In this document: one piece after another, positions 35,911 through 47,352 of the stretch
Layout: every line of letters begins with the position of its first letter
Numbering within the stretch: position 1 is the stretch's first letter
Source of the DNA: Candidatus Iainarchaeum sp.
Lineage (GTDB): Archaea > Iainarchaeota > Iainarchaeia > Iainarchaeales > JAXPJC01
NCBI GenBank assembly: GCA_016187745.1
Contig: JACPJC010000003.1
Coordinates: 32,001 to 96,000 of the forward strand
Direction of reading: 5' to 3'
DNA length: 64,000 nt
Notes under the pieces: generated by a model
Databases searched by the model: none
What the model was told of the DNA's origin: nothing
Seen by the model: only the letters and a program-made list of their open reading frames with translations
Position numbers and translations under genes: made by a program

Positions 35911-36099
35911 ATGGTCTGCTTCGGGGAATACGCAAGCTACCAGTTCAACTGCAAATTCTGCGATTTCCTGCAGGGCTGCAGGGAATTCACAACAGCAAAA
36001 GGCAGGGCGCGGGGAAAGAATTCCGCTTCTGCAATTAACGAAAAAAAGCAAAGCAATAAAAAGCAATATCCATCAGTAAATAATCCAGGGGTTGGGTGA
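35911..36099 (+). CDS. Small Cys-containing hypothetical protein
   Basis: CFG.Y....C..C.....C pattern. Confidence 0.4.
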   Translation: MVCFGEYASYQFNCKFCDFLQGCREFTTAKGRARGKNSASAINEKKQSNKKQYPSVNNPGVG

Positions 36100-36568
36100 G
36101 GGTTTGGCGGGAGTTAAGTTAATCATAGTGATTGCGGCAGCGGTCCTGATTTTAATAGCGGTTTTTGGCAAGCCCCTTACCGGATTCAGCGTGCTTTCTC
36201 TCCTAGATGTTCAGGCGCAGTCAAACAAAGCGATGCTGGATGATGTGCTTAAGGAAAATCCGGAACTTGGCAGCAGCCTGACGCAGGCAGAGAAAACAAA
36301 GCTTTATGATGTAATTTCTGACAAAAAGCTCACAAAGGAACAGATTGAGGATCTTGTAAGAAGTATGCATAGATCGCCAGAAGAATTAGCAGAGACACAA
36401 AAAATAATAGAGGAAGCATTGCGTACAGGCCCTACTGCCGTTGGAGGCTATGAGGAAAGCTTTGTGATTGGTGGAAAGACATACACTGAAGACGAACTCA
36501 AGAATATGACTGCTGAGCAAATTGAAGCGCTGACGGGGCAAACGCAGGGCGGAGGCACGGATAAATGA
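36092..36568 (+). CDS. Membrane-anchored hypothetical protein, first gene of toxin operon
   Basis: N-terminal TM followed by TGFSV; acidic helical domain; ATGA overlap with next gene. Confidence 0.7.
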   Translation: MGEGLAGVKLIIVIAAAVLILIAVFGKPLTGFSVLSLLDVQAQSNKAMLDDVLKENPELGSSLTQAEKTKLYDVISDKKLTKEQIEDLVRSMHRSPEELAETQKIIEEALRTGPTAVGGYEESFVIGGKTYTEDELKNMTAEQIEALTGQTQGGGTDK

Positions 36569-37992
36569 ATGCCAAGCTCCTGCTGGCGTTTGCCGTACTC
36601 TCTTTATTCCTATTAAACAATGCCTCTGCAATCTGGCCATGGGATGAATGCAACAGCCCGAGCGGTGGAACAATTTACCCCGGAGGAAGCGCAAGCGGAT
36701 GGATTGCCGGCTGGGTTGATGGTGATGATTGGGTAAGTGTTAATATCAGCAGTTCCGGCGAGTATAACTTCTGGCTTACCGGACCAAGCAATGCAGATTT
36801 TGATTTGCAAGTTTATTCAAATTGCAGCGGCAGTTGGGTTTGTGGCTCAGCAGGCGGGAGCTCTTCTGAAAGCTGCACAAAATCTATCTCTTCTGGCACT
36901 TACCATATGAGGGTCCTTGCATATGGCTATTGGGATTCAGGCAATTGGACTATGGGCGCAACAAAAAAGGCAACAACCTGCTACACCCATAATTATTCCG
37001 CGTGCTACAGCAACGACCGCTATTGGTATAATTCCTGCGGCACCAGGGAAGAGGTAAGGTATGATTGCGGAGATGATTCATATGGAAGCTGGAATAATTA
37101 CTATTGCTCAAGCAATGATGTTTATAGGAGCAGGAGCTTTACAGACAGGGGCTGCTCATCAGATAGCTGCTTTGCAAATTCAAGCACGCAATATGAGCTA
37201 TACCAGGATTGTGGCGATTCCAGCTATGGGTCATGGAGCAGCAACTATTGTTCAAGCAATAATGTAACGCAATCAAGGACTGTTTACAACAAAGGATGCT
37301 CAAGCGGCTCTTGCACATCAAGCAATACAACTGAAACCCGCGTAGTGGATTACTGCTCATCAAATGAAACATGCGAGAGCGGGCAATGCAAGCCGAAATG
37401 CACAAGCAATGCCTATACTTCGTGCTATAACGGGGATATTTATTGGTATGATTCCTGCAACAACAGGCAGGAGATAAAGACGGATTGCGGAGACACTACA
37501 TACGGATCATGGGGAAACAGCTATTGTTCCAGCAATAATGTAATGCAGACTCGCAATGTTTACGGGCCCTATTGCGAAAGCAGCCAGTGCAAAAGCCAGA
37601 CAACAACAGAAAGCCGTATTGCGGAAACATGCGATGGGCAGTTTAATTTCTGCCTTGGAAACTCGTGCATTTTATGCGATTCACATACATCCTACCAATG
37701 CACGGACAATGATGTTTATTGGTTCAACTCCTGCGGCACTAAAGAGGACAAGAAGCAGGAATGCGGCTCAAGCTATTGTGATGCCTGGAGCGGAAATTCC
37801 TGCAAGGACGGGAGTGTTGTAAGGAGCAGGACTTGCTACGACAAGGGCTGCGGAAGCAATGCGTGCTACGCAAATCCGGACACGCAATATGAAAGTGTGG
37901 AAACGTGCCAGTATGGGTGCAGCGGCGGCGCATGCATCCAGCTCTCAGACCTGTCCATAGCGCCAGAGGACATCATATTTGAAAAGACGTGA
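36565..37992 (+). CDS. Secreted Cys-rich repeat protein with PPC-like domain
   Basis: Signal peptide; DDW..V...LTGP.NADFDL.VY...S.SSESC (PPC-like); three D.YW.(N/D)SC modules and W...C....V...R modules. Confidence 0.85.
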   Translation: MNAKLLLAFAVLSLFLLNNASAIWPWDECNSPSGGTIYPGGSASGWIAGWVDGDDWVSVNISSSGEYNFWLTGPSNADFDLQVYSNCSGSWVCGSAGGSSSESCTKSISSGTYHMRVLAYGYWDSGNWTMGATKKATTCYTHNYSACYSNDRYWYNSCGTREEVRYDCGDDSYGSWNNYYCSSNDVYRSRSFTDRGCSSDSCFANSSTQYELYQDCGDSSYGSWSSNYCSSNNVTQSRTVYNKGCSSGSCTSSNTTETRVVDYCSSNETCESGQCKPKCTSNAYTSCYNGDIYWYDSCNNRQEIKTDCGDTTYGSWGNSYCSSNNVMQTRNVYGPYCESSQCKSQTTTESRIAETCDGQFNFCLGNSCILCDSHTSYQCTDNDVYWFNSCGTKEDKKQECGSSYCDAWSGNSCKDGSVVRSRTCYDKGCGSNACYANPDTQYESVETCQYGCSGGACIQLSDLSIAPEDIIFEKT

Positions 37993-37996
37993 TGAA

Positions 37997-40900
37997 ATGA
38001 ATGAAAAAGCAAGGGTGCATATTGCAAATGCTTTGGTTTTGCTAGTTGTGGTTGGCCTCATATTCGGGGCGCTTGCCGCAAGGGGCGGAAGTGGAAATGA
38101 CAACGGGAATGCCCATGACAATATGGCGGATGCGGAACTTATTTTTACTGATGAAGATTTGAGCGCAAAAGAGCTTAAGGGGCGGGCGCTCACATTCATT
38201 GAGCCAATGATTGCAACAGCAGCAGGCGATGACCTGAGCAAACTGCTTGAAATAAAGGCAAATATATCAGAAAGCCTTAATGCGGATTATTGGCTCTCCG
38301 ATGAGTCTGTTACTAACGAAGAGGTCTTTAATTCTGAGAAATCCGCAGCAAATGACATCCGCACGCTCTACAACAGGGAAAGCAGCTTGCTTGACAATGC
38401 TTCCTTATTGCTTGCAATAAGCAGGTTAATCCAGGCCGATGATGAAATTTCCAAATTGCAGATGGAACAAACAGAGAATCTGCTCCTGCAGATAAATGAT
38501 GAGGCAACAATTGCGGCAATAAGCTCATACCTCAATGATGCAAGAAGCAGCTATGAGCAGGCATGGCACCAGATAGAGCAGCCAAGCAACTATCCGAATT
38601 CAATTGAGCACTTCAAGAATTCATGGAATAGCTCATACAATGGCCTGCTGAAATTAGATGAACTAACAGTGCCGATAGTAACTATAGATTTCCCTGCAAC
38701 AAATACTTACACCACTGAGGCAGACCAGGCAATTTCCGGCACAGTATGGGATGCAAGGCTGCACACAATCCCAAATGTGAAAGTAAATGTGAATGATGCG
38801 GCATATGAATTTTCCCTGGATAATGGAAACTACAACGGCGCAATTGCCCTGAGCGAAGGGAACAACCTCATAACCGCATATGCAACTGATGCATTCAACA
38901 ATGCAGGGAGTGCAGGCATTGAAATGGTATTGGATACAATTGCGCCTGAAATAACTATTGAAGGTGTAGAAGACGGCGTATTTTACAATGCGGATGTAAT
39001 TCCGATAGTTTCAATTGCCGATCTGCACCTGGCAGAAACAGTCATAACATTAAATGGCAATCCATTTGCTTCGGGAACAAGCATTGCAGAAGAAGGAGAA
39101 TATACATTAACTGCCTATGGAAAAGATTTGGCAGGAAATGAATCAAGCAGGACAATAAGTTTTGTAATAGACAAGACTCCGCCAGCAGTGGTGATAAATG
39201 CCCCTGCAGATCTTGTTTACCTAAGGCAGGTTGTGCAGATTAATGGAACAGCAACTGACAAATATTTGGACAGTATTTCACTAAAGATTAATGGTAATGA
39301 GGTTTCAAGTATAGCTAACTTTGAATGGAATACAATAGAATATGCGGATGGGGCTTATAATATTGAATTAAGCGCAAGAGACAAAGCCGGTAATGCTTCA
39401 TCCACAACAATTTCAGTAATTATTGATAACACTCTTCCGGAAATTACAATCAGCGGTATTGAAGAGGGGGCATTCTATAATTATGATGTTGTGCCGGTGG
39501 TTGAAGTAATTGAAGCTAATCCTGATATAACTACAGCAATGCTTGATAATGCTGAATTTGAGCTTGGCTCAAGCATTTCGGAAGAGGGAATGCATGAGTT
39601 TTCTGCAACAGCAACAGACAAGGCAGGAAATAGTGCAAGCAGGTCTGTAAGCTTTGGGATTGACAAAACTGCCCCAATAACAACTGATAATGCAATAACG
39701 GGATGGGTAAATACAGATGTTGTTGTAATTCTCACATCAGTAGACAATCTAAGCGGAGTGACAAAAACTTATTATTCAATCAATAATGGAGCAGAGCAGG
39801 AAGGCACGCAAATAACACTTACAGAAACAGGGGAATATATTATTTCATATTATTCAACAGATATTGCAGGAAACGTTGAGGATGCAAAGCAAAGTGCGAA
39901 AGTGCAGATAGACAAAATTGCCCCTGAAATTTCAGTTATTGCACCTGAGGAGAGGGATTATTCCTATACGGCTATTTTGCCCCTCAATTTCTCAGCAACT
40001 GATGCGGATTCAGGATTAAAAGAACTAAATGCAGAGCTTGATGGAATTGCTGTTAATTCTGGAGAGAATATAAACCTCTATAGTTATGCGCTCGGTCAGC
40101 ACACACTTGTAATTAGTGCAATTGATAATGCAGGCAATTCTGCAACAAAGAGTGTTGTATTCAATCTAATTGATGATGTAAAGCCAGAATCAAACGCTGA
40201 ACTTGCAGGAACGCCTGGAAATAATAATTGGTATGTGAGCGATGCTACAATTATACTTACTGCAATTGATGCAAAAAGTGGAGTTAAAAAAATACAATAC
40301 AGCACTGATGGAAGCACTTATGCAGATTATGCTGCTCCGCTAATAATTTCCACAGAAGGCCTAACAACAATTTATTACAGGGCAGAGGACAATTCAGGCA
40401 ATATTGAAGATACAAAAACAATTAGTTTTAAAATTGATAAAACTCCACCAGAACTAAACATTACTGAACTCAATGAAAATCCAACGCTTGAAGATGCTAA
40501 TTATTCAATCTTAGTTGAAACAGAGAATGGTGCAGATTTGGGTGTTAGTATAATCCAAACTAATATAGATACATCAACGGGAAGCAATCTTGGTGCTACT
40601 CAATCTTCAGAGAGTATTGCTCATAATGGTTCCGCAATCTATAGAATGGATGTTATTGAAGGAATTAATGAAATAATCTTTACTGCAATGGATGAAGCTG
40701 GAAATACAACAATAAAACAGTTTAGAAGGCTTGTTGATAGGGATAAGATTTCTGATAGTTATGAAATAGAGATGCTCAAAACAGATCCTCTAAAAGCAGA
40801 TTCTGATAGTGATGGCATAAATGATGATATTGAGGACTTTGATGCAGATGGATTAACAAACCTTGCTGAATTTTTATTAGGCAGCAACCCATTTGATGCT

Positions 40901-43900
40901 GATAGTGATGATGATACGCTTACTGATTTCTATGAGGTTGTAATGACAAATACAAGCCCAACAGATTCTGATACAAAGGATGCAGGAATTTCTGATGGCT
41001 TGCAGGACTTTGATGAAGAAGGTTTAACAAATGCTTCTGAACAACAATATGGTACACATCCCTTTAGAGAAGATACAGACAAAGATGGCATTAGTGATAG
41101 CAATGAGATTAATACATACAGAACAGACCCGCTAAATCCAGATACTAGCAATGATGGCATAACCGATGGAGATGCAGTTAGATATGGGCTGAATCCCTCT
41201 GAGAATAATTCAAACACCCAACTTACATTTGAATTTGCTAATGAAGCAGCCGATGCTGAAATTGAAATAAAGGCAAGAGGTAAGATAATTGATGATGTAA
41301 ACATTGAAGTTAATCAAAACCCCTTCCCATTGCTTAAAAATCTTAGTGGAATATCATCCGAATTTATAGCAATTTCAGTTGATGAAAACTTTGATTCAGC
41401 AACAATAAAAGTACATTACAATCCTTCAGAGATTCCTGATCCAAGCAAATTAAGGCTTTTCAGATTTGATCCTGAGCAAAGAATTCCTGTTGAAGCTGGT
41501 GTACAAGGAATTGACATTGTAAACAACCTTGTGTGGGCAGAAACAAATAGCTTTAGCCTATGGTTCTTGGCTGATCCTAATGATTGGTATGCAAATTCTG
41601 CAATTTCTTGGAATAGGCCTGAACTGGTGTTTTCATCAGAAGAGATTATGACTGTCAAGGCACGCATTAGAAATAATACTTCTGTTCCTACCTCAAATGT
41701 AAGGGTTGATTTCTATGCTGGCAATCCAGATTCTGGAGGCATATTAATAGGAACAACCTATGTTGATGTTCCGGGAAACAACTATGCATTTGCATCAATT
41801 GAATGGCTTCCAGAGAATATCAAGGATGTTTATGTAGTTGTTGATCCTGCAGGCTTGATTGCAGAGACAGACAAAACCAACAACAAAGCCTCAAGAGTTT
41901 TTGAAACATATATAGATTCTGATGGCGATGGATTAAGCGACAGCGAAGAAACAAATGGCATGAGATTGTTGTTTCCTTACACACCAATCTATACAGATCC
42001 AAATAACCCAGATAGCGATGCTGATGGCTTAAGTGATAGCGAAGAGATGGGTGCACAGATAGAAATTAATGGGAAATTATACTACAATCCGGTAAGTTTG
42101 CCGGATAAGGCAGATTCTGACGCTGATGGCCTGGATGATTATTCAGAATCAGAAGGCTGGTATGTTTCTGTAATCTCTAATCTCTCTACACTAAAGGAGG
42201 TTCTGCAAAAGCAGGAGAATGATGAGGATTACACCAGCTTCATAACAAACTATCATGTAACCTCCAACCCGATGCTTTATGATACAGATAACGATTATGT
42301 GAATGATGAAAGAGAGATGGCATTTGGCTCTGATCCTAGAAACAAAGATACTGATGGAGATTGGTTGCGAGATAATAGAGATGATGATCCAACAGTAATT
42401 GAAACAGAAGTTCCAAAGATTGAGTTGCTGGGGATAACAATAATAGATTATAAAGTTGGGCCAGGCATACCTCCATTGCCACCAAGTATTACTATTTGGG
42501 CAGAAGTTGCCTACTTTACTGAGGATAATGTAAAAATAAAGGTTGTATCTCTTGAAAATAATGGCAATCCACAAACAAGCCATTATTCTGAGGGCTTGTA
42601 TTTGGATGGCTTTAGCTCAGAGCTTGTTTCCGGAGCATTGTTTGGAATAGATGTTAGGGTTCGTGCTGAAGACCTTGTTGGAAATGAGAGGATTGTACAG
42701 ATAATCTATGCTGAAGGCGTAGTGGCGGGGGTATACAAATTTTTTGACGAACAAGTAAAAGCATTTATTACCTCCCCAAGCGCCTACAATTATGGTTTTG
42801 GGCACGGCTTGATAGATGGGGTAGCAATGGAGGTTGGTGATACAGTAGACTTTGTTGGGAGTGTTGTTACTGAAGGAGCACAACCGTGGATAGCTGCCGG
42901 CAAGGGCATTGAAACCGTTGCAAATGAAGGTTTGGGAATAATATTTGAAGCATATGGCCAGCGAATGAAGCCCTTGAGAGAGGCCGACAACCCCTATCCA
43001 AAAAACACCCCTGATTATAGCTCATTCAATACTGGTTGGAATACTGGCTTTGGCACCGGCTATATAAGTACAGCAGTGGTTGAGGGAATTGCAATCTCAA
43101 AAGGTGCAAGTTGGGCAGCAAGCGTTGCAAAGAACCTTGCAAACTCAGGCAAGCTTGCAGGCATTGCCTCAAAGCTCTCAAAGGCAGGCAAAATAATTAA
43201 ATCGGCAGCCAGCATGCCACTAAAGAACAAGCTTGTGCTTGGAGCAAGTGCTGTCGGCAGCACCTACTTGCTGAAAGAAGCCTTCCCAGATATTGATGCG
43301 TTAGATAATCTATACTATCTTGAACTAGGAGTTGCACCAACATTCCTTACAATGGGGGAAGGCAAAAATCTTCGCAAGCTGAATGCTCTCACGCCAGACG
43401 AACAAGAAGGAGTACTAAAATTTATTGCAAGAAACGATCAATCGGCAATAAAGACTAGAGTGAACTTCCTTAACAAGCTTGATGATGCCTCTCTCAAAAA
43501 TTGGGCAAATACTGAAGCAAGTATACAGAAGCACCTCTATGGTGGAGTTGTAAAGCTCAGAAAACTAGGATATGATGATGAGTTAATAGCAAACGTCTAT
43601 AAAAATAATGGGGATTTGACACAAACTTTAAGGATAGCTAAAGACGGGAGTGGAGTTACCGGGTGGCTAGAGATTGGAGATCGTGCAGCAAAAAACGGGT
43701 GGGATCACATTAAATTTGACCATCAGCTAGATTTTGTTAAAAACATTGGTGCAGAATTTGTAAATGGTGATAAATTGAAAGATTTAGTAATTGAAAGTGT
43801 AAGAAATGGTTTAACCCCGGATTATCCAACACAATATTTCTTTGAAGTTAAGCCAGGTAAATGGATGAGAACGGTGAGAGGTTCAAATGGTTATATACAT

Positions 43901-43948
43901 ACTTCACATCCAGTAGAAATAGACCAAGTACCACTATCAATAAGGTGA
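37997..43948 (+). CDS. Giant surface polymorphic toxin (Ig-like repeats, Ca-binding DxDxDG repeats, CARDB, C-terminal toxin-like domain)
   Basis: N-terminal TM; repeated D.AGN and DKT.P Ig units; DSDGDGLSD repeats; VVVDP...I.E.DK.NN; tip WLE.G....GW.HI...H..DF...GSNGYI.T.HP. Confidence 0.8.
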   Translation: MNEKARVHIANALVLLVVVGLIFGALAARGGSGNDNGNAHDNMADAELIFTDEDLSAKELKGRALTFIEPMIATAAGDDLSKLLEIKANISESLNADYWLSDESVTNEEVFNSEKSAANDIRTLYNRESSLLDNASLLLAISRLIQADDEISKLQMEQTENLLLQINDEATIAAISSYLNDARSSYEQAWHQIEQPSNYPNSIEHFKNSWNSSYNGLLKLDELTVPIVTIDFPATNTYTTEADQAISGTVWDARLHTIPNVKVNVNDAAYEFSLDNGNYNGAIALSEGNNLITAYATDAFNNAGSAGIEMVLDTIAPEITIEGVEDGVFYNADVIPIVSIADLHLAETVITLNGNPFASGTSIAEEGEYTLTAYGKDLAGNESSRTISFVIDKTPPAVVINAPADLVYLRQVVQINGTATDKYLDSISLKINGNEVSSIANFEWNTIEYADGAYNIELSARDKAGNASSTTISVIIDNTLPEITISGIEEGAFYNYDVVPVVEVIEANPDITTAMLDNAEFELGSSISEEGMHEFSATATDKAGNSASRSVSFGIDKTAPITTDNAITGWVNTDVVVILTSVDNLSGVTKTYYSINNGAEQEGTQITLTETGEYIISYYSTDIAGNVEDAKQSAKVQIDKIAPEISVIAPEERDYSYTAILPLNFSATDADSGLKELNAELDGIAVNSGENINLYSYALGQHTLVISAIDNAGNSATKSVVFNLIDDVKPESNAELAGTPGNNNWYVSDATIILTAIDAKSGVKKIQYSTDGSTYADYAAPLIISTEGLTTIYYRAEDNSGNIEDTKTISFKIDKTPPELNITELNENPTLEDANYSILVETENGADLGVSIIQTNIDTSTGSNLGATQSSESIAHNGSAIYRMDVIEGINEIIFTAMDEAGNTTIKQFRRLVDRDKISDSYEIEMLKTDPLKADSDSDGINDDIEDFDADGLTNLAEFLLGSNPFDADSDDDTLTDFYEVVMTNTSPTDSDTKDAGISDGLQDFDEEGLTNASEQQYGTHPFREDTDKDGISDSNEINTYRTDPLNPDTSNDGITDGDAVRYGLNPSENNSNTQLTFEFANEAADAEIEIKARGKIIDDVNIEVNQNPFPLLKNLSGISSEFIAISVDENFDSATIKVHYNPSEIPDPSKLRLFRFDPEQRIPVEAGVQGIDIVNNLVWAETNSFSLWFLADPNDWYANSAISWNRPELVFSSEEIMTVKARIRNNTSVPTSNVRVDFYAGNPDSGGILIGTTYVDVPGNNYAFASIEWLPENIKDVYVVVDPAGLIAETDKTNNKASRVFETYIDSDGDGLSDSEETNGMRLLFPYTPIYTDPNNPDSDADGLSDSEEMGAQIEINGKLYYNPVSLPDKADSDADGLDDYSESEGWYVSVISNLSTLKEVLQKQENDEDYTSFITNYHVTSNPMLYDTDNDYVNDEREMAFGSDPRNKDTDGDWLRDNRDDDPTVIETEVPKIELLGITIIDYKVGPGIPPLPPSITIWAEVAYFTEDNVKIKVVSLENNGNPQTSHYSEGLYLDGFSSELVSGALFGIDVRVRAEDLVGNERIVQIIYAEGVVAGVYKFFDEQVKAFITSPSAYNYGFGHGLIDGVAMEVGDTVDFVGSVVTEGAQPWIAAGKGIETVANEGLGIIFEAYGQRMKPLREADNPYPKNTPDYSSFNTGWNTGFGTGYISTAVVEGIAISKGASWAASVAKNLANSGKLAGIASKLSKAGKIIKSAASMPLKNKLVLGASAVGSTYLLKEAFPDIDALDNLYYLELGVAPTFLTMGEGKNLRKLNALTPDEQEGVLKFIARNDQSAIKTRVNFLNKLDDASLKNWANTEASIQKHLYGGVVKLRKLGYDDELIANVYKNNGDLTQTLRIAKDGSGVTGWLEIGDRAAKNGWDHIKFDHQLDFVKNIGAEFVNGDKLKDLVIESVRNGLTPDYPTQYFFEVKPGKWMRTVRGSNGYIHTSHPVEIDQVPLSIR

Positions 43949-43952
43949 ACAC

Positions 43953-44441
43953 ATGCCATCAATTTTAATCGAAACAAAAAAGATTATTGGATTAAATGAC
44001 ATAATTAGATTCCCTAATGTATCTGCTAGTGCTGCGGATCCTAGGTTTATTGCCTATGCGGATATTTATATTAATATAAATGGAAAAGAATTAAAAACAA
44101 AAAATAAAGTTACAGGTGATTGGTTGTGGTGGTTTTATTCTGAATTATTGAAATCATACTGTGATGCAATAGCAAAAGGTATTGGTATTTGCAATTTTAC
44201 TGATTCTGCAGATCGTCTGATTCTGGAAAGAAAAGGTGGGGAGTTATTTCTTACTTTCAAATATGCCTATAAAAATAAAACTAATATCAAAAAAGAAAAA
44301 TTAGAACTCATTTTATTTAGAGACTATATAACTGAAAAGGCTAGTAATTTTTATAATGATTTAATAAAATTGAATAAGAATATCAAGAACAAGGAGTTCA
44401 TGAAACTTGGAAGTCTAATCAGAAAGGTTAAGAAATTATAG
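43953..44441 (+). CDS. Putative cognate immunity protein
   Basis: Starts 4 nt after the toxin stop, AGGTGA SD, AT-rich, no signal peptide. Confidence 0.65.
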   Translation: MPSILIETKKIIGLNDIIRFPNVSASAADPRFIAYADIYININGKELKTKNKVTGDWLWWFYSELLKSYCDAIAKGIGICNFTDSADRLILERKGGELFLTFKYAYKNKTNIKKEKLELILFRDYITEKASNFYNDLIKLNKNIKNKEFMKLGSLIRKVKKL

Positions 44442-44588
44442 AGAAGCCCATGGGGGGATTTAAGCAAAACACTGCATATAACAGATTCAGAAATTCGTAG
44501 AGTTATAGCTAACAGTGGATTGAAATACATTGATGAGGTCCAGATTGAAACTACCATGGATATAAAAATATTTTCAGTACCAAAATAA
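44442..44588 (+). pseudogene. Start-less orphan toxin-tip remnant
   Basis: 48 open codons RSPWGDLSKTLHITDSEIRRVIANSGLKYIDEVQIETTMDIKIFSVPK ending just before the next immunity-like gene. Confidence 0.45.
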
Positions 44589-44604
44589 AAAGTAAATAAA
44601 TGAT

Positions 44605-45312
44605 ATGGTGTATACAATGCATGAATTTTTAAAAGAAGGTTTTATAGGTAGTGATAGTCTAACTTCCTGGTCATTTGAATTAGGTAGAAAAGAAACGAGT
44701 GTAGGCGTGGCTAGCATATTAGATAACATATTACGCAAAAGGTTAAAGTTTTGCTATCCTTATAATGTAGAGATAGACCAAGCAGACTTCTCAATATTTA
44801 TGAAACCAAATGATCCACCTTTAGGGAAAGTATTGGGAAAAAACAAAGCGGTAATGGATGCAATTAAAGAATTTACTGAAAACAATCCGCAATCATATGG
44901 TGCCAGTATTGCTATTGACTGGTCCGTTAATCTCTATTTGAAGACTAATGAAACATATAAAAAAAGACTTGTTAAACCAGGAGAGTTTCAAATACATAAA
45001 GGGACTCGTTATCCAGTTATTTTAACTATAAGTGATTCAGAATGGGTCCATTTTTATAATAACGCACAAATTTGGTTTCCTTGTGTATATAAACATAATA
45101 ATAATCTTGGACATGCTAAAAGAAACATACCTCTTTTAAACAAAGCTTTTAAAATGCTTGATAGAGAACTTGAACCAAAAGATATAGACTTTGAACCAAA
45201 CGAATTCAATGGTGCAAAAGTTTTCAAACATGGATTAAAAATACAAAAAGGGGATTGTTGGTGTAAACGGACATCATCGTGGGAAAAACCTTTAATTTGG
45301 AAGACATTATAA
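44605..45312 (+). CDS. Putative orphan immunity protein
   Basis: 235-aa AT-rich ORF within the array. Confidence 0.55.
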   Translation: MVYTMHEFLKEGFIGSDSLTSWSFELGRKETSVGVASILDNILRKRLKFCYPYNVEIDQADFSIFMKPNDPPLGKVLGKNKAVMDAIKEFTENNPQSYGASIAIDWSVNLYLKTNETYKKRLVKPGEFQIHKGTRYPVILTISDSEWVHFYNNAQIWFPCVYKHNNNLGHAKRNIPLLNKAFKMLDRELEPKDIDFEPNEFNGAKVFKHGLKIQKGDCWCKRTSSWEKPLIWKTL

Positions 45313-45314
45313 AC

Positions 45315-45452
45315 ATGACTGAAGAAGAAAGAGAAATTGAGATTGTAACCATTGGTCCTAAAGATGGAATTGGTTTTGATAAGACCTTAGATTATACTGA
45401 AAAAGAACTGGATGAATTATATAACACAATAAGTAAATGGTTAAGTGGTTAA
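45315..45452 (+). pseudogene. Orphan toxin-tip fragment (45 aa) homologous to the C-terminus of 45917-46339
   Basis: IVTIGPKDGIGFDKTLDYTEKELDELYNTI vs LITIGPKGGKKVGFDRELEYTEMELDELYKTL. Confidence 0.7.
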
Positions 45453-45453
45453 T

Positions 45454-45912
45454 ATGGGTCAAGGCTACTATTTATATAAGGGGGCTGGCAATGAACCAAG
45501 AGAAGACCGTAACGAATTTACATTGTTGGGCAAAGGAGAACCACGTTTTGGTGTTTCTTATGGTACTGGTGGGCAAGTTATCATAACTCTAGAAGAAAAT
45601 GGTTGGGGTGCAAGTGTATTGAGAAAGATATATAAAATATGGGATAAAGAAGAAATTCAGAAACATACATCTGAAGAGCTAATGGCACATCTAAAAGAAT
45701 GTAGTGATATAATTTTATCAGAAGACGAAATAAAGGAAGTAAAAGAGTACTGCAATACAATTATACCACAATTAGAAAAAAGAATAGAAGAAATGGAAAG
45801 CAAAGGAGACTTCAAAACAGGTTACTTTGATGAGGCAGTTTTCTTCTTGAAGGGATTAAAAAATTTGTGTGAAAAGGCATTAGAAAGAAACCTGAAAATT
45901 AGGATATCTTAA
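45454..45912 (+). CDS. Putative orphan immunity protein
   Basis: Starts 1 nt after the fragment stop; acidic; ends LCEKALERNLKIRIS. Confidence 0.6.
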   Translation: MGQGYYLYKGAGNEPREDRNEFTLLGKGEPRFGVSYGTGGQVIITLEENGWGASVLRKIYKIWDKEEIQKHTSEELMAHLKECSDIILSEDEIKEVKEYCNTIIPQLEKRIEEMESKGDFKTGYFDEAVFFLKGLKNLCEKALERNLKIRIS

Positions 45913-45916
45913 AGAC

Positions 45917-46339
45917 TTGCGACTAAATAAAAAGGACTTATTGCTTATGCCTGCATTTGAAGTTAAATTGAAGGATGCAACAACGGGGGAAATAAAAATT
46001 GCAAGAGTTTCAAATTTTGTTACAAAAAATAATGAGATTGTTGCAATATACAATACTAAGAGTAAGTGTAACAAATCCGAGGCAAAGGCAGCCAAAGAAG
46101 AATTGGAAAATTTTATATCACTTATTAAGGCTTGGCAAAATAGCGAAACTGGAAAAGATTATACACTTGGAGCAGAAGGATTCAAAATAAAGGTTTCTGA
46201 AATAAACACTGATAAGATCAAACTTATAACAATAGGTCCAAAAGGTGGGAAGAAAGTAGGATTTGATAGGGAATTGGAATATACTGAAATGGAATTGGAT
46301 GAATTATATAAGACACTTAAGTATGGGATGAAATCATAA
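45917..46339 (+). pseudogene. Orphan toxin tip, possibly degenerate nuclease
   Basis: No good start or SD; shares C-terminus with 45315-45452; RVSNFV...IYNTK resembles a decayed PD-(D/E)xK pattern (weak). Confidence 0.5.
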
Positions 46340-46776: not shown

Positions 46777-46797
46777 CATTTGAATCTGTGGAAAAAC

Positions 46798-47352
46798 ATG
46801 CGCTATAAATTGCTGCTGGTCCTGCTGTTTGCGGTTGCGCTTTTCGCTGCAATCAGCGTCTTGCGCCCGATAGGGGAAGCCGGGCTGAAGAGCCAGACTG
46901 AAGTTCCGGAACAGCAGAAAGTTTCCGCTTACTTCTGCCCCGAGGACGACTGCAGCGGCAAATTGATTGATGCGATTGGTAGCGCTAAAACTTATGTGCA
47001 CATTGCAATCTACTCCTTCACGCATAAGGGAATTGCAGATGCGCTTGTTTCAGCAAGGCTGCGCGGAGTGGAAGTGAAGGTCCTTTTTGACAGGCAGCAG
47101 GCGGGAAGCGAATTCAGCGTTGATGAAATTTTAAGCGAGGCGGGAATTGAGGTTAAGTATGATACGCTTTCGGGGTATATGCACGACAAATTCACGGTAA
47201 TTGATGACAGGATTGCGACAACAGGCTCCTTTAATTACACAAGGAATGCTGATGCGAGAAATGCCGAAAACCTTGTAATAATGAATGCCGAGGATGTTGC
47301 AATGAAGTTTGAACTTGAATTCCAGAAGCTTTGGGAGAGCAGCGGAAGCTAA
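46798..47352 (+). CDS. Phospholipase D-family (Nuc-like) nuclease with N-terminal TM/signal
   Basis: IYSFT, MHDKF.VID, TGSFN.T..A...N.EN; single HKD motif. Confidence 0.9.
   Translation: MRYKLLLVLLFAVALFAAISVLRPIGEAGLKSQTEVPEQQKVSAYFCPEDDCSGKLIDAIGSAKTYVHIAIYSFTHKGIADALVSARLRGVEVKVLFDRQQAGSEFSVDEILSEAGIEVKYDTLSGYMHDKFTVIDDRIATTGSFNYTRNADARNAENLVIMNAEDVAMKFELEFQKLWESSGS

Follow-up and report, generated by a model that had tools for sequence, protein, structure and literature searches.

The window, the whole stretch of 64,000 nucleotides that was analysed (G000:C2:32001-96000), encodes on its forward strand a secreted cysteine-rich (Cys-rich) protein of 475 amino acids, P0001 (36565..37992), and immediately downstream of it a giant surface protein, P0002 (1983 amino acids from ATG, 37997..43948). 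The Cys-rich protein ends in a short tail resembling the first strand of a CARDB domain, and the giant contains a single CARDB in which that strand is not recognisable. It is established that the tail exists, that it is conserved and that it is linked to the giant gene. Strand complementation in trans, in which the tail of the Cys-rich protein would complete the CARDB of the giant, is a reading supported by a model of the complex, and the chances for and against it are judged to be about equal.

According to this mechanism, the last 15-16 residues of the Cys-rich protein would be a docking tag, a detached first (A/A') strand of a CARDB. Both proteins would be exported, after which the tag would insert into the centrally placed CARDB of the giant, encoded immediately downstream, pairing antiparallel with strand B and packing against strands F and G. 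It would take the place at which the chain of the giant has only a degenerate, non-canonical segment, and the outcome would be an adhesin-like Cys-rich head clipped onto a giant polymorphic-toxin-like stalk.

Conservation of the tail and its likeness to a CARDB strand

The tail (LSDLSIAPEDIIFEKT, residues 460-475) is encoded at 37942..37989 on the forward strand, and the C-terminal end of P0001, ...CQYGCSGGACIQLSDLSIAPEDIIFEKT, is followed by the stop codon TGA at 37990-37992. The family sample of 180 proteins was drawn from 36 relatives found in a first search, from the best 150 listed of 727 matches at E ≤ 0.001, and from 10 matches of a later search. Ten of these proteins (P0001, P0003, P0006, P0012, P0014, P0049, P0055, P0064, P0067 and P0101) carry the motif [PS][DN]L.[IV]...DI.[IF]E[KR] at the protein end, within 0-4 residues of the same point, and an eleventh copy is found in genome G046. 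Four other relatives (P0016, P0017, P0032 and P0035) run on past the same junction into a complete C-terminal CARDB, the Pfam CARDB profile being covered at positions 2-99 and 1-99 in P0016 and P0017, the two of the four that were tested. The sequence-only reading of this DNA had raised the possibility that homologues continue into a full CARDB, leaving the tail a simple truncation; this is the case in four relatives, while ten others end at the same residue. Since the ten belong to diverged lineages, this end is a fixed feature of the architecture and not the mark of a broken gene.

When nine last modules, 23-95 % identical to that of the window, were aligned, 13 columns were invariant, namely four tail residues (L463, D469, I470 and E473), eight cysteines and one glycine, and no other non-cysteine stretch of the module is conserved as well as the tail. 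The suggestion that the tail might not be conserved, which had been put forward as a ground for giving up the proposal, is therefore false. In a comparison with L003, a relative of 81 % identity, 6 synonymous and 2 non-synonymous changes fall in the 16 codons of the tail (non-synonymous rate dN 0.056, synonymous rate dS 0.974, dN/dS ~0.06), much as in the remainder of the module, and the tail is under purifying selection. The same tail residues are encoded by different codons in distant loci. Overlap with the start region of the giant gene was considered as a cause of the conservation and rejected, because the codons vary freely while the residues stay.

Relatives carry other devices at the same position. 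A transmembrane (TM)-like helix was found at the C-terminal end of 15 of the 180 family proteins with a crude test, and dockerin is carried by P0007 and P0189 (precomputed Pfam). Because relatives have TM-like ends, dockerin or a full CARDB there, the position of the tail can be regarded as the slot of the family for anchoring devices. The tail-bearing proteins P0055, P0064 and P0067 are Peptidase_S8 subtilases in which Cys modules are also present. For one tail-bearing subtilase the source gives the name 'S8 family serine peptidase [Candidatus Woesearchaeota archaeon]', and the taxonomy of the tail-bearing subtilases rests on this one source name. A search with the tail module of the subtilase P0067 gave no further tail-bearers among its 10 matches. 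That subtilases of other DPANN archaea bear this tag as well points to a modular plug-and-socket arrangement.

The CARDB of the giant belongs to a subgroup with the signature FYxGDPDxGG...NNKA, canonical members of which begin x-D-L-x-[LIV]-x-x-x-D-[IL]-x-F, and the spacing in the tail is identical. The PDL...DI.F pattern of the tail is located at the junction where P0016, P0017, P0032 and P0035 begin their full CARDB. By eye, the first strands of the P0016-type CARDBs and of the other CARDBs of the genome are without the D-I-x-F of positions 9-12. On a position matrix derived from 10 subgroup first strands (P0040, P0042, P0044, P0045 and P0047), a partly circular test since the training strands were chosen by a regular expression imposing the pattern, nine of the ten tails scored 4.4-27.6 bits, that of the window scoring 14.1. 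The tail of P0055, one residue short of the 14-residue frame, scored -18.1. True strands had leave-one-out scores of -0.6 to 23.6 bits, and among 20,000 random 20-mers from other proteins 0.31 % reached at least 5 bits and 0.015 % at least 12 bits. As judged from these sequence comparisons, the resemblance of the tail to a CARDB first strand is more than chance.

The CARDB of the giant protein and the model of the complex

The one Pfam CARDB match of the giant (PF07705) covers residues 1221-1305, counted here and below from the TTG at 37979, and positions 18-100 of the 101 positions of the profile, with 26.9 bits against a cut-off of 22.7. The region submitted alone matched profile positions 17-100 with 29 bits, and the search of the genome gave 28.5 bits; the domain passes the Pfam gathering cut-off. 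The core of the domain, strands B to G (residues 1221-1308, 41639..41902, forward strand), also aligns to the solved chain 2kut_A (E 4.9e-11). Profile positions 1-16, which correspond to the PDL strand, are unmatched in the same chain. The match begins at profile position 16 both in the giant of the Iainarchaeum locus L002 and in the distant giant P0043, and no CARDB row was obtained for the distant giant P0041 at E ≤ 0.001. The genome has 12 CARDB matches, of which the eight strongest (E ≤ 2.5e-10) begin at profile positions 1-9 and that of the giant at 17. A second CARDB without a first strand was not found in the genome, the other late-starting weak match, L064, having its own PDL strand. 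Two other very large open reading frames (ORFs) of the genome (1772 and 2155 amino acids; C1:22102-23469 and C6:34852-36318) carry tandem canonical CARDB repeats with intact PDL strands.

At the place of the first strand and the loop to strand B, the giant has the segment NDWYANSAISWNRPELVFSS (residues 1201-1220, 41579..41638, forward strand), which is non-canonical in the alignments and scored -10.6 on the strand matrix. The giants' own segments had scores of -5.7 to -15.6 in six of six cases; only W-N is conserved in them, and in the distant giants they have many P, G, N and S residues. The sequence-only reading proposed that one CARDB was split between the two proteins, and its view that the tail is like a CARDB first strand and that the match of the giant lacks profile positions 1-16 is retained. 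Its identification of PELVFSSEE as the PDL strand was not upheld, as alignments with 2kut_A (ETPFEGEEITV) and P0044 (ISFN-PEAAIVGQQV) place these residues on the loop before strand B. Nor is the domain about 10 residues short, as had been claimed, since the chain continues upstream (DPNDWYANSAISWN) with a segment long enough for a first strand. As far as can be seen in the alignments, the first strand is unrecognisable and the domain is not shortened.

The C-terminal 44 residues of P0001 (alignment of 9) were modelled in complex with residues 1098-1317 of the giant (alignment of 5), the giant's own upstream segment being kept in the model as a competitor. The interaction prediction score from aligned errors (ipSAE) was 0.67, 0.65 and 0.62 (median 0.65), and that of the best of three controls 0.00. 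Of 157 solved complexes 116 attained this ipSAE mark, as did 2 of 215 mismatched pairs, counts which are rough here, own alignments having been used. Contact agreement between runs was at least 92 %, and the predicted local distance difference test score (pLDDT) was at least 59 for the partner and 66-68 for the other chain.

Tail residues 463-472 run antiparallel on giant residues 1225-1232 in the model, touching 1284-1289 and 1294-1308. Confident contacts are those of D469-F472 on T1225-R1229 and of L463-I465 on I1230-N1232; the tail also contacts V1284, V1286, V1288, D1289, I1294-D1298, N1301-R1306 and F1308. The giant's own residues 1202-1221 are absent from the confidently placed contacts. 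The predicted socket for the tail is accordingly made up of strand B (residues 1222-1234, 41642-41680) and strands F and G (residues 1284-1308, 41828-41902), all on the forward strand, and the modelled tail is in the canonical first-strand slot between strands B and G, against F and G. The giant's own segment would then either not fill the slot or be displaced from it. The docking geometry is that of the model only, and the model supports binding of the tail to the giant but does not show it. The earlier claim that the tail completes the CARDB in trans gains from the occupied first-strand slot and the ipSAE of 0.65 against 0.00, a result which may also reflect memory of intact folds.

A homologue of the giant is the next gene in all five loci with DNA downstream of the tail-bearing gene (the window, L003, L002, L010 and L043/G046). 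Relative to the stop codon of the tail gene, the giant starts at +5 (as in the window), +5 or +11 nucleotides, or overlaps it in ATGA (-3). The start of the CARDB is equally non-canonical in all four loci with a whole giant. The Cys module occurs in 25 of 215 genomes of the phylum (E ≤ 1e-5), its tail-bearing form only in G000, G010 and G046. The two-domain region of the giant has some match in 9 of the 215 genomes (E ≤ 1e-8), with end-to-end matches only in the same three, which belong to three different families. The association is perfect, but the genes are adjacent, so that it shows joint travel and not binding.

Alternatives to strand complementation in trans

Besides the partial circularity of the matrix test, several observations weigh against completion of the giant's CARDB by the tail. 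A profile of 12 other CARDBs gave no significant match to the tails (-2.8 to 0.7 bits, E 0.44-1.8), and the tail alone gave no match in Pfam. The chain pLDDTs in the complex model are modest (60-68), and the model, as two halves of one fold, may have passed through likeness to intact CARDBs (2kl6/3idu, 2kut) and not through true affinity. Co-occurrence in three genomes is confounded by operon linkage, and the genomic context covers 5 of the 11 tail-bearers, the other six being P0014, P0049, P0055, P0064, P0067 and P0101, so that a strand-deficient CARDB near the gene is not shown for the subtilases. The giant's AISWNRPE resembles the canonical DISFN-PE; a degenerate A' strand in cis may be possible in the giant, the conserved W-N could be a remnant that fills the slot, and the CARDB of the giant may be complete on its own. 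The roles of 'toxin' and 'adhesin' are derived from architecture only. The tag on subtilases fits the word 'swappable' in the clip proposed by the sequence-only reading.

If the CARDB of the giant were complete in cis, the tail could still be a real docking or anchoring strand with a different acceptor, such as another immunoglobulin (Ig)-like domain of the giant, an S-layer or envelope protein or a host surface protein. Such an acceptor, which is considered rather improbable, would agree with the conservation of the tail, with its placement where relatives have TM anchors, dockerins or CARDBs, and with its presence on subtilases of unplaced genomic context; there are, moreover, many other Ig-like domains in the giant, and its AISWN segment could serve as the A' strand. 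It is opposed by the match of the tail to first strands in the CARDB subfamily of the giant itself, by the fact that the CARDB of the giant is the only strong one of the genome without a recognisable first strand, and by the complex model, which places the tail on this CARDB with controls near zero.

A similarly low probability is assigned to the possibility that the tail is the vestige of a lost C-terminal CARDB, kept to cap or stabilise the last Cys module or for some other local reason and binding nothing, the complex model then being an artefact of fold memory. In keeping with a vestige, four relatives still have a full CARDB at this junction, no profile can call so short a tail, split halves of known folds tend to pass complex prediction, and purifying selection acts just as strongly on the neighbouring module as on the tail. 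However, the canonical pattern of buried residues and the identical end have been kept across lineages with 23-59 % module identity, and neither transplantation onto subtilases nor lasting attachment to the giant gene in three families would be expected of a vestige.

It is very improbable that the two genes yield a single protein through a frameshift, read-through or a recoded stop, with the tail as an internal linker. The ORFs are 5 nucleotides apart or overlapping, and frame 2 is open from 37961, but read-through of the TGA would meet more stops at once (TGA TGA AAT GAA TGA), stop codons (TGA, TAA) and spacings (+5, +11, -3) vary between loci, the downstream protein has its own basic-plus-hydrophobic export signal in every locus, and in a fusion the strand would be followed by a membrane helix and not by the remainder of a CARDB. 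Read-through, frameshift and TGA recoding at the junction were rejected on the grounds of the further in-frame stops, the differing stops and spacings and the separate export signal. The chance that the Cys-rich gene has merely suffered truncation or breakage in this genome is equally small. Although the protein stops where a CARDB would begin, 10 representatives and 4 independent operons share the same end, the tail codons show synonymous change, and a recent truncation or pseudogene is ruled out by this recurrent end and by the synonymous changes.

Gene neighbourhood and relation to known systems

The genome of 0.96 Mb is in 10 contigs and is 91 % complete. The closest named relative at the locus is a metagenome-assembled genome, 'Candidatus Iainarchaeum archaeon' (L002), of the same order (G010), and from this nearest relative we infer that the source organism is a DPANN archaeon. 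The region 36092-43948 contains three co-directional genes, encoding a small helix protein, the Cys-rich protein and the giant. The first of these (36092..36568, forward strand; 158 amino acids from TTG) has an N-terminal hydrophobic helix, matched no Pfam family and opens a conserved three-gene unit, being first in all four loci with upstream DNA. In L002 (9483-9998), L003 (7962-8480) and L043/G046 (219 amino acids) a homologue of it immediately precedes the Cys-rich gene. The C-terminal part of this single-helix protein, which always precedes the Cys-rich gene, is conserved (...IGGKTYTE.ELK.MT.EQ...). The small helix protein could anchor the unit or help in its assembly.

The Cys-rich protein consists of a signal peptide, the N-terminus being signal-peptide-like, a PPC-like N-terminal domain, repeated Cys modules and the C-terminal tail. 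The PPC matches in its relatives P0014 and P0049 are weak and below the Pfam cut-off, and a search of the ESM Atlas with P0001 gave PPC-type neighbours only, at 0.81-0.85 (all below 0.9), which is a lead only. The ORF of the giant opens with TTG at 37979, has its probable start at ATG 37997 and ends at 43948 (1989 or 1983 amino acids), and the public protein set has 1983 amino acids. By its ORF and Pfam matches, the giant consists of an N-terminal hydrophobic segment, Ig-like (Big_13, Glucodextran_B) and OmpL47-type domains, TSP3-like calcium repeats, the single CARDB and a variable C-terminus.

Similarity to the giant of the 81 % relative L003 stops at residue 1844 of 1989, and this break delimits the variable C-terminal region, a putative toxin module (residues ~1845-1989, 43511..43945, forward strand). 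Residues 1873-1978 match the otherwise distant giant of G046 at 35 %. Four small ORFs follow on the same strand (162, 235, 155 and 140 amino acids; 43953..46339), candidates for immunity genes or spare cassettes, and the guanine-plus-cytosine (GC) content is 0.315 at 44001-46000 compared with ~0.45 around it. Neither the C-terminus of the giant of the window nor the four downstream ORFs matched a Pfam family above the cut-off, and no toxin or immunity family was recognisable in them. The C-terminus in L002 has a weak match to Mrr_cat, of the restriction-endonuclease fold (E 0.0016, 19 bits against a cut-off of 21). The architecture of the giant fits polymorphic toxin systems, from which a toxic activity is proposed. 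Just past the low-GC region, at 46780-47352, is a gene for a protein of 190 amino acids that has a hydrophobic segment at its N-terminus and contains a PLD-like (PLDc_2) domain (E 1.1e-29); the gene may or may not belong to the toxin locus.

In chaperone-usher pili, donor-strand complementation joins the tip adhesin to the stalk (FimH-FimG). The arrangement proposed here is similar in that an Ig-like domain wanting one strand would be completed by a short terminal extension of a secreted protein from the same operon, linking adhesin and stalk. It differs in that the donor is C-terminal and on the adhesin-like protein, the acceptor is an internal CARDB of the giant, and the missing strand is the first (A/A') and not the last (G). 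There is also no chaperone or usher, none being matched by Pfam in the three-gene unit, and no polymer, which is not expected because the donor has no acceptor domain of its own.

Like canonical CARDBs (PF07705; 2kl6/3idu, 2l0d, 2kut), the giant matches strands B-G and the tail has PDL...DI.F, but the parts are on two polypeptides. A short C-terminal module on diverse cargo and a socket domain on a large scaffold are also features of the cohesin-dockerin pairs of the cellulosome type, in which, however, the dockerin is a folded calcium-binding domain of ~70 residues on a complete cohesin, whereas here a 15-residue strand would complete the fold. Neither dockerin (PF00404) nor cohesin (PF00963) was found in P0001 or P0002 with Pfam. 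Cohesin is present in the relative P0004, as dockerin is in P0007 and P0189 (both from precomputed Pfam), which hints at cellulosome-like docking among surface proteins of small archaea.

Donor-strand filaments of archaea include Sulfolobus threads, Pyrodictium cannulae, bundling pili and tafi (PMC9715654, 10.1101/2024.12.30.630787, PMC12337348, PMC11821415). They share with the proposed arrangement a chaperone-free donation between surface proteins, calcium-dependent in some, and the giant has TSP3-like calcium repeats beside its CARDB. These filaments are homopolymers of small subunits, whereas a one-to-one heterotypic clip in a DPANN archaeon, with the CARDB fold, is proposed here. Polymorphic toxin systems (PMC6393860) are alike in that one giant exported protein combines a conserved body with an exchanged module at its C-terminus, and small ORFs of low GC content come after it; in the papers searched, no such system is described in which a split domain clips on an accessory protein. 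In a literature search CARDB was not linked with donor strands, abstracts on CARDB and DPANN made no mention of a split CARDB clip, and a looser search gave nothing comparable among the matches listed.

Strand complementation in trans may be extended, more tentatively and with a probability somewhat short of even, to a naturally split CARDB serving as a DPANN plug-and-socket. A 15-residue tag on interchangeable cargo (Cys-rich heads in Iainarchaeota, subtilases in Woesearchaeota) would complete a strand-deficient socket on toxin-tipped giant fibres, and the degenerate segment of the giant would be a displaced placeholder.

If complementation in trans is true, it would represent a heterotypic, chaperone-free variant of donor-strand complementation with a C-terminal donor, an A-strand, the CARDB fold and a tag common to different cargo. 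The tag and the CARDB would be a small natural peptide-domain pair for protein engineering and a natural counterpart of engineered split-domain tags. A function would be provided for a widespread orphan C-terminal motif of DPANN Cys-rich proteins and subtilases, and genome-reduced episymbiotic archaea would be able to put together surface weapons or attachment organs from several proteins with no machinery dedicated to the task.

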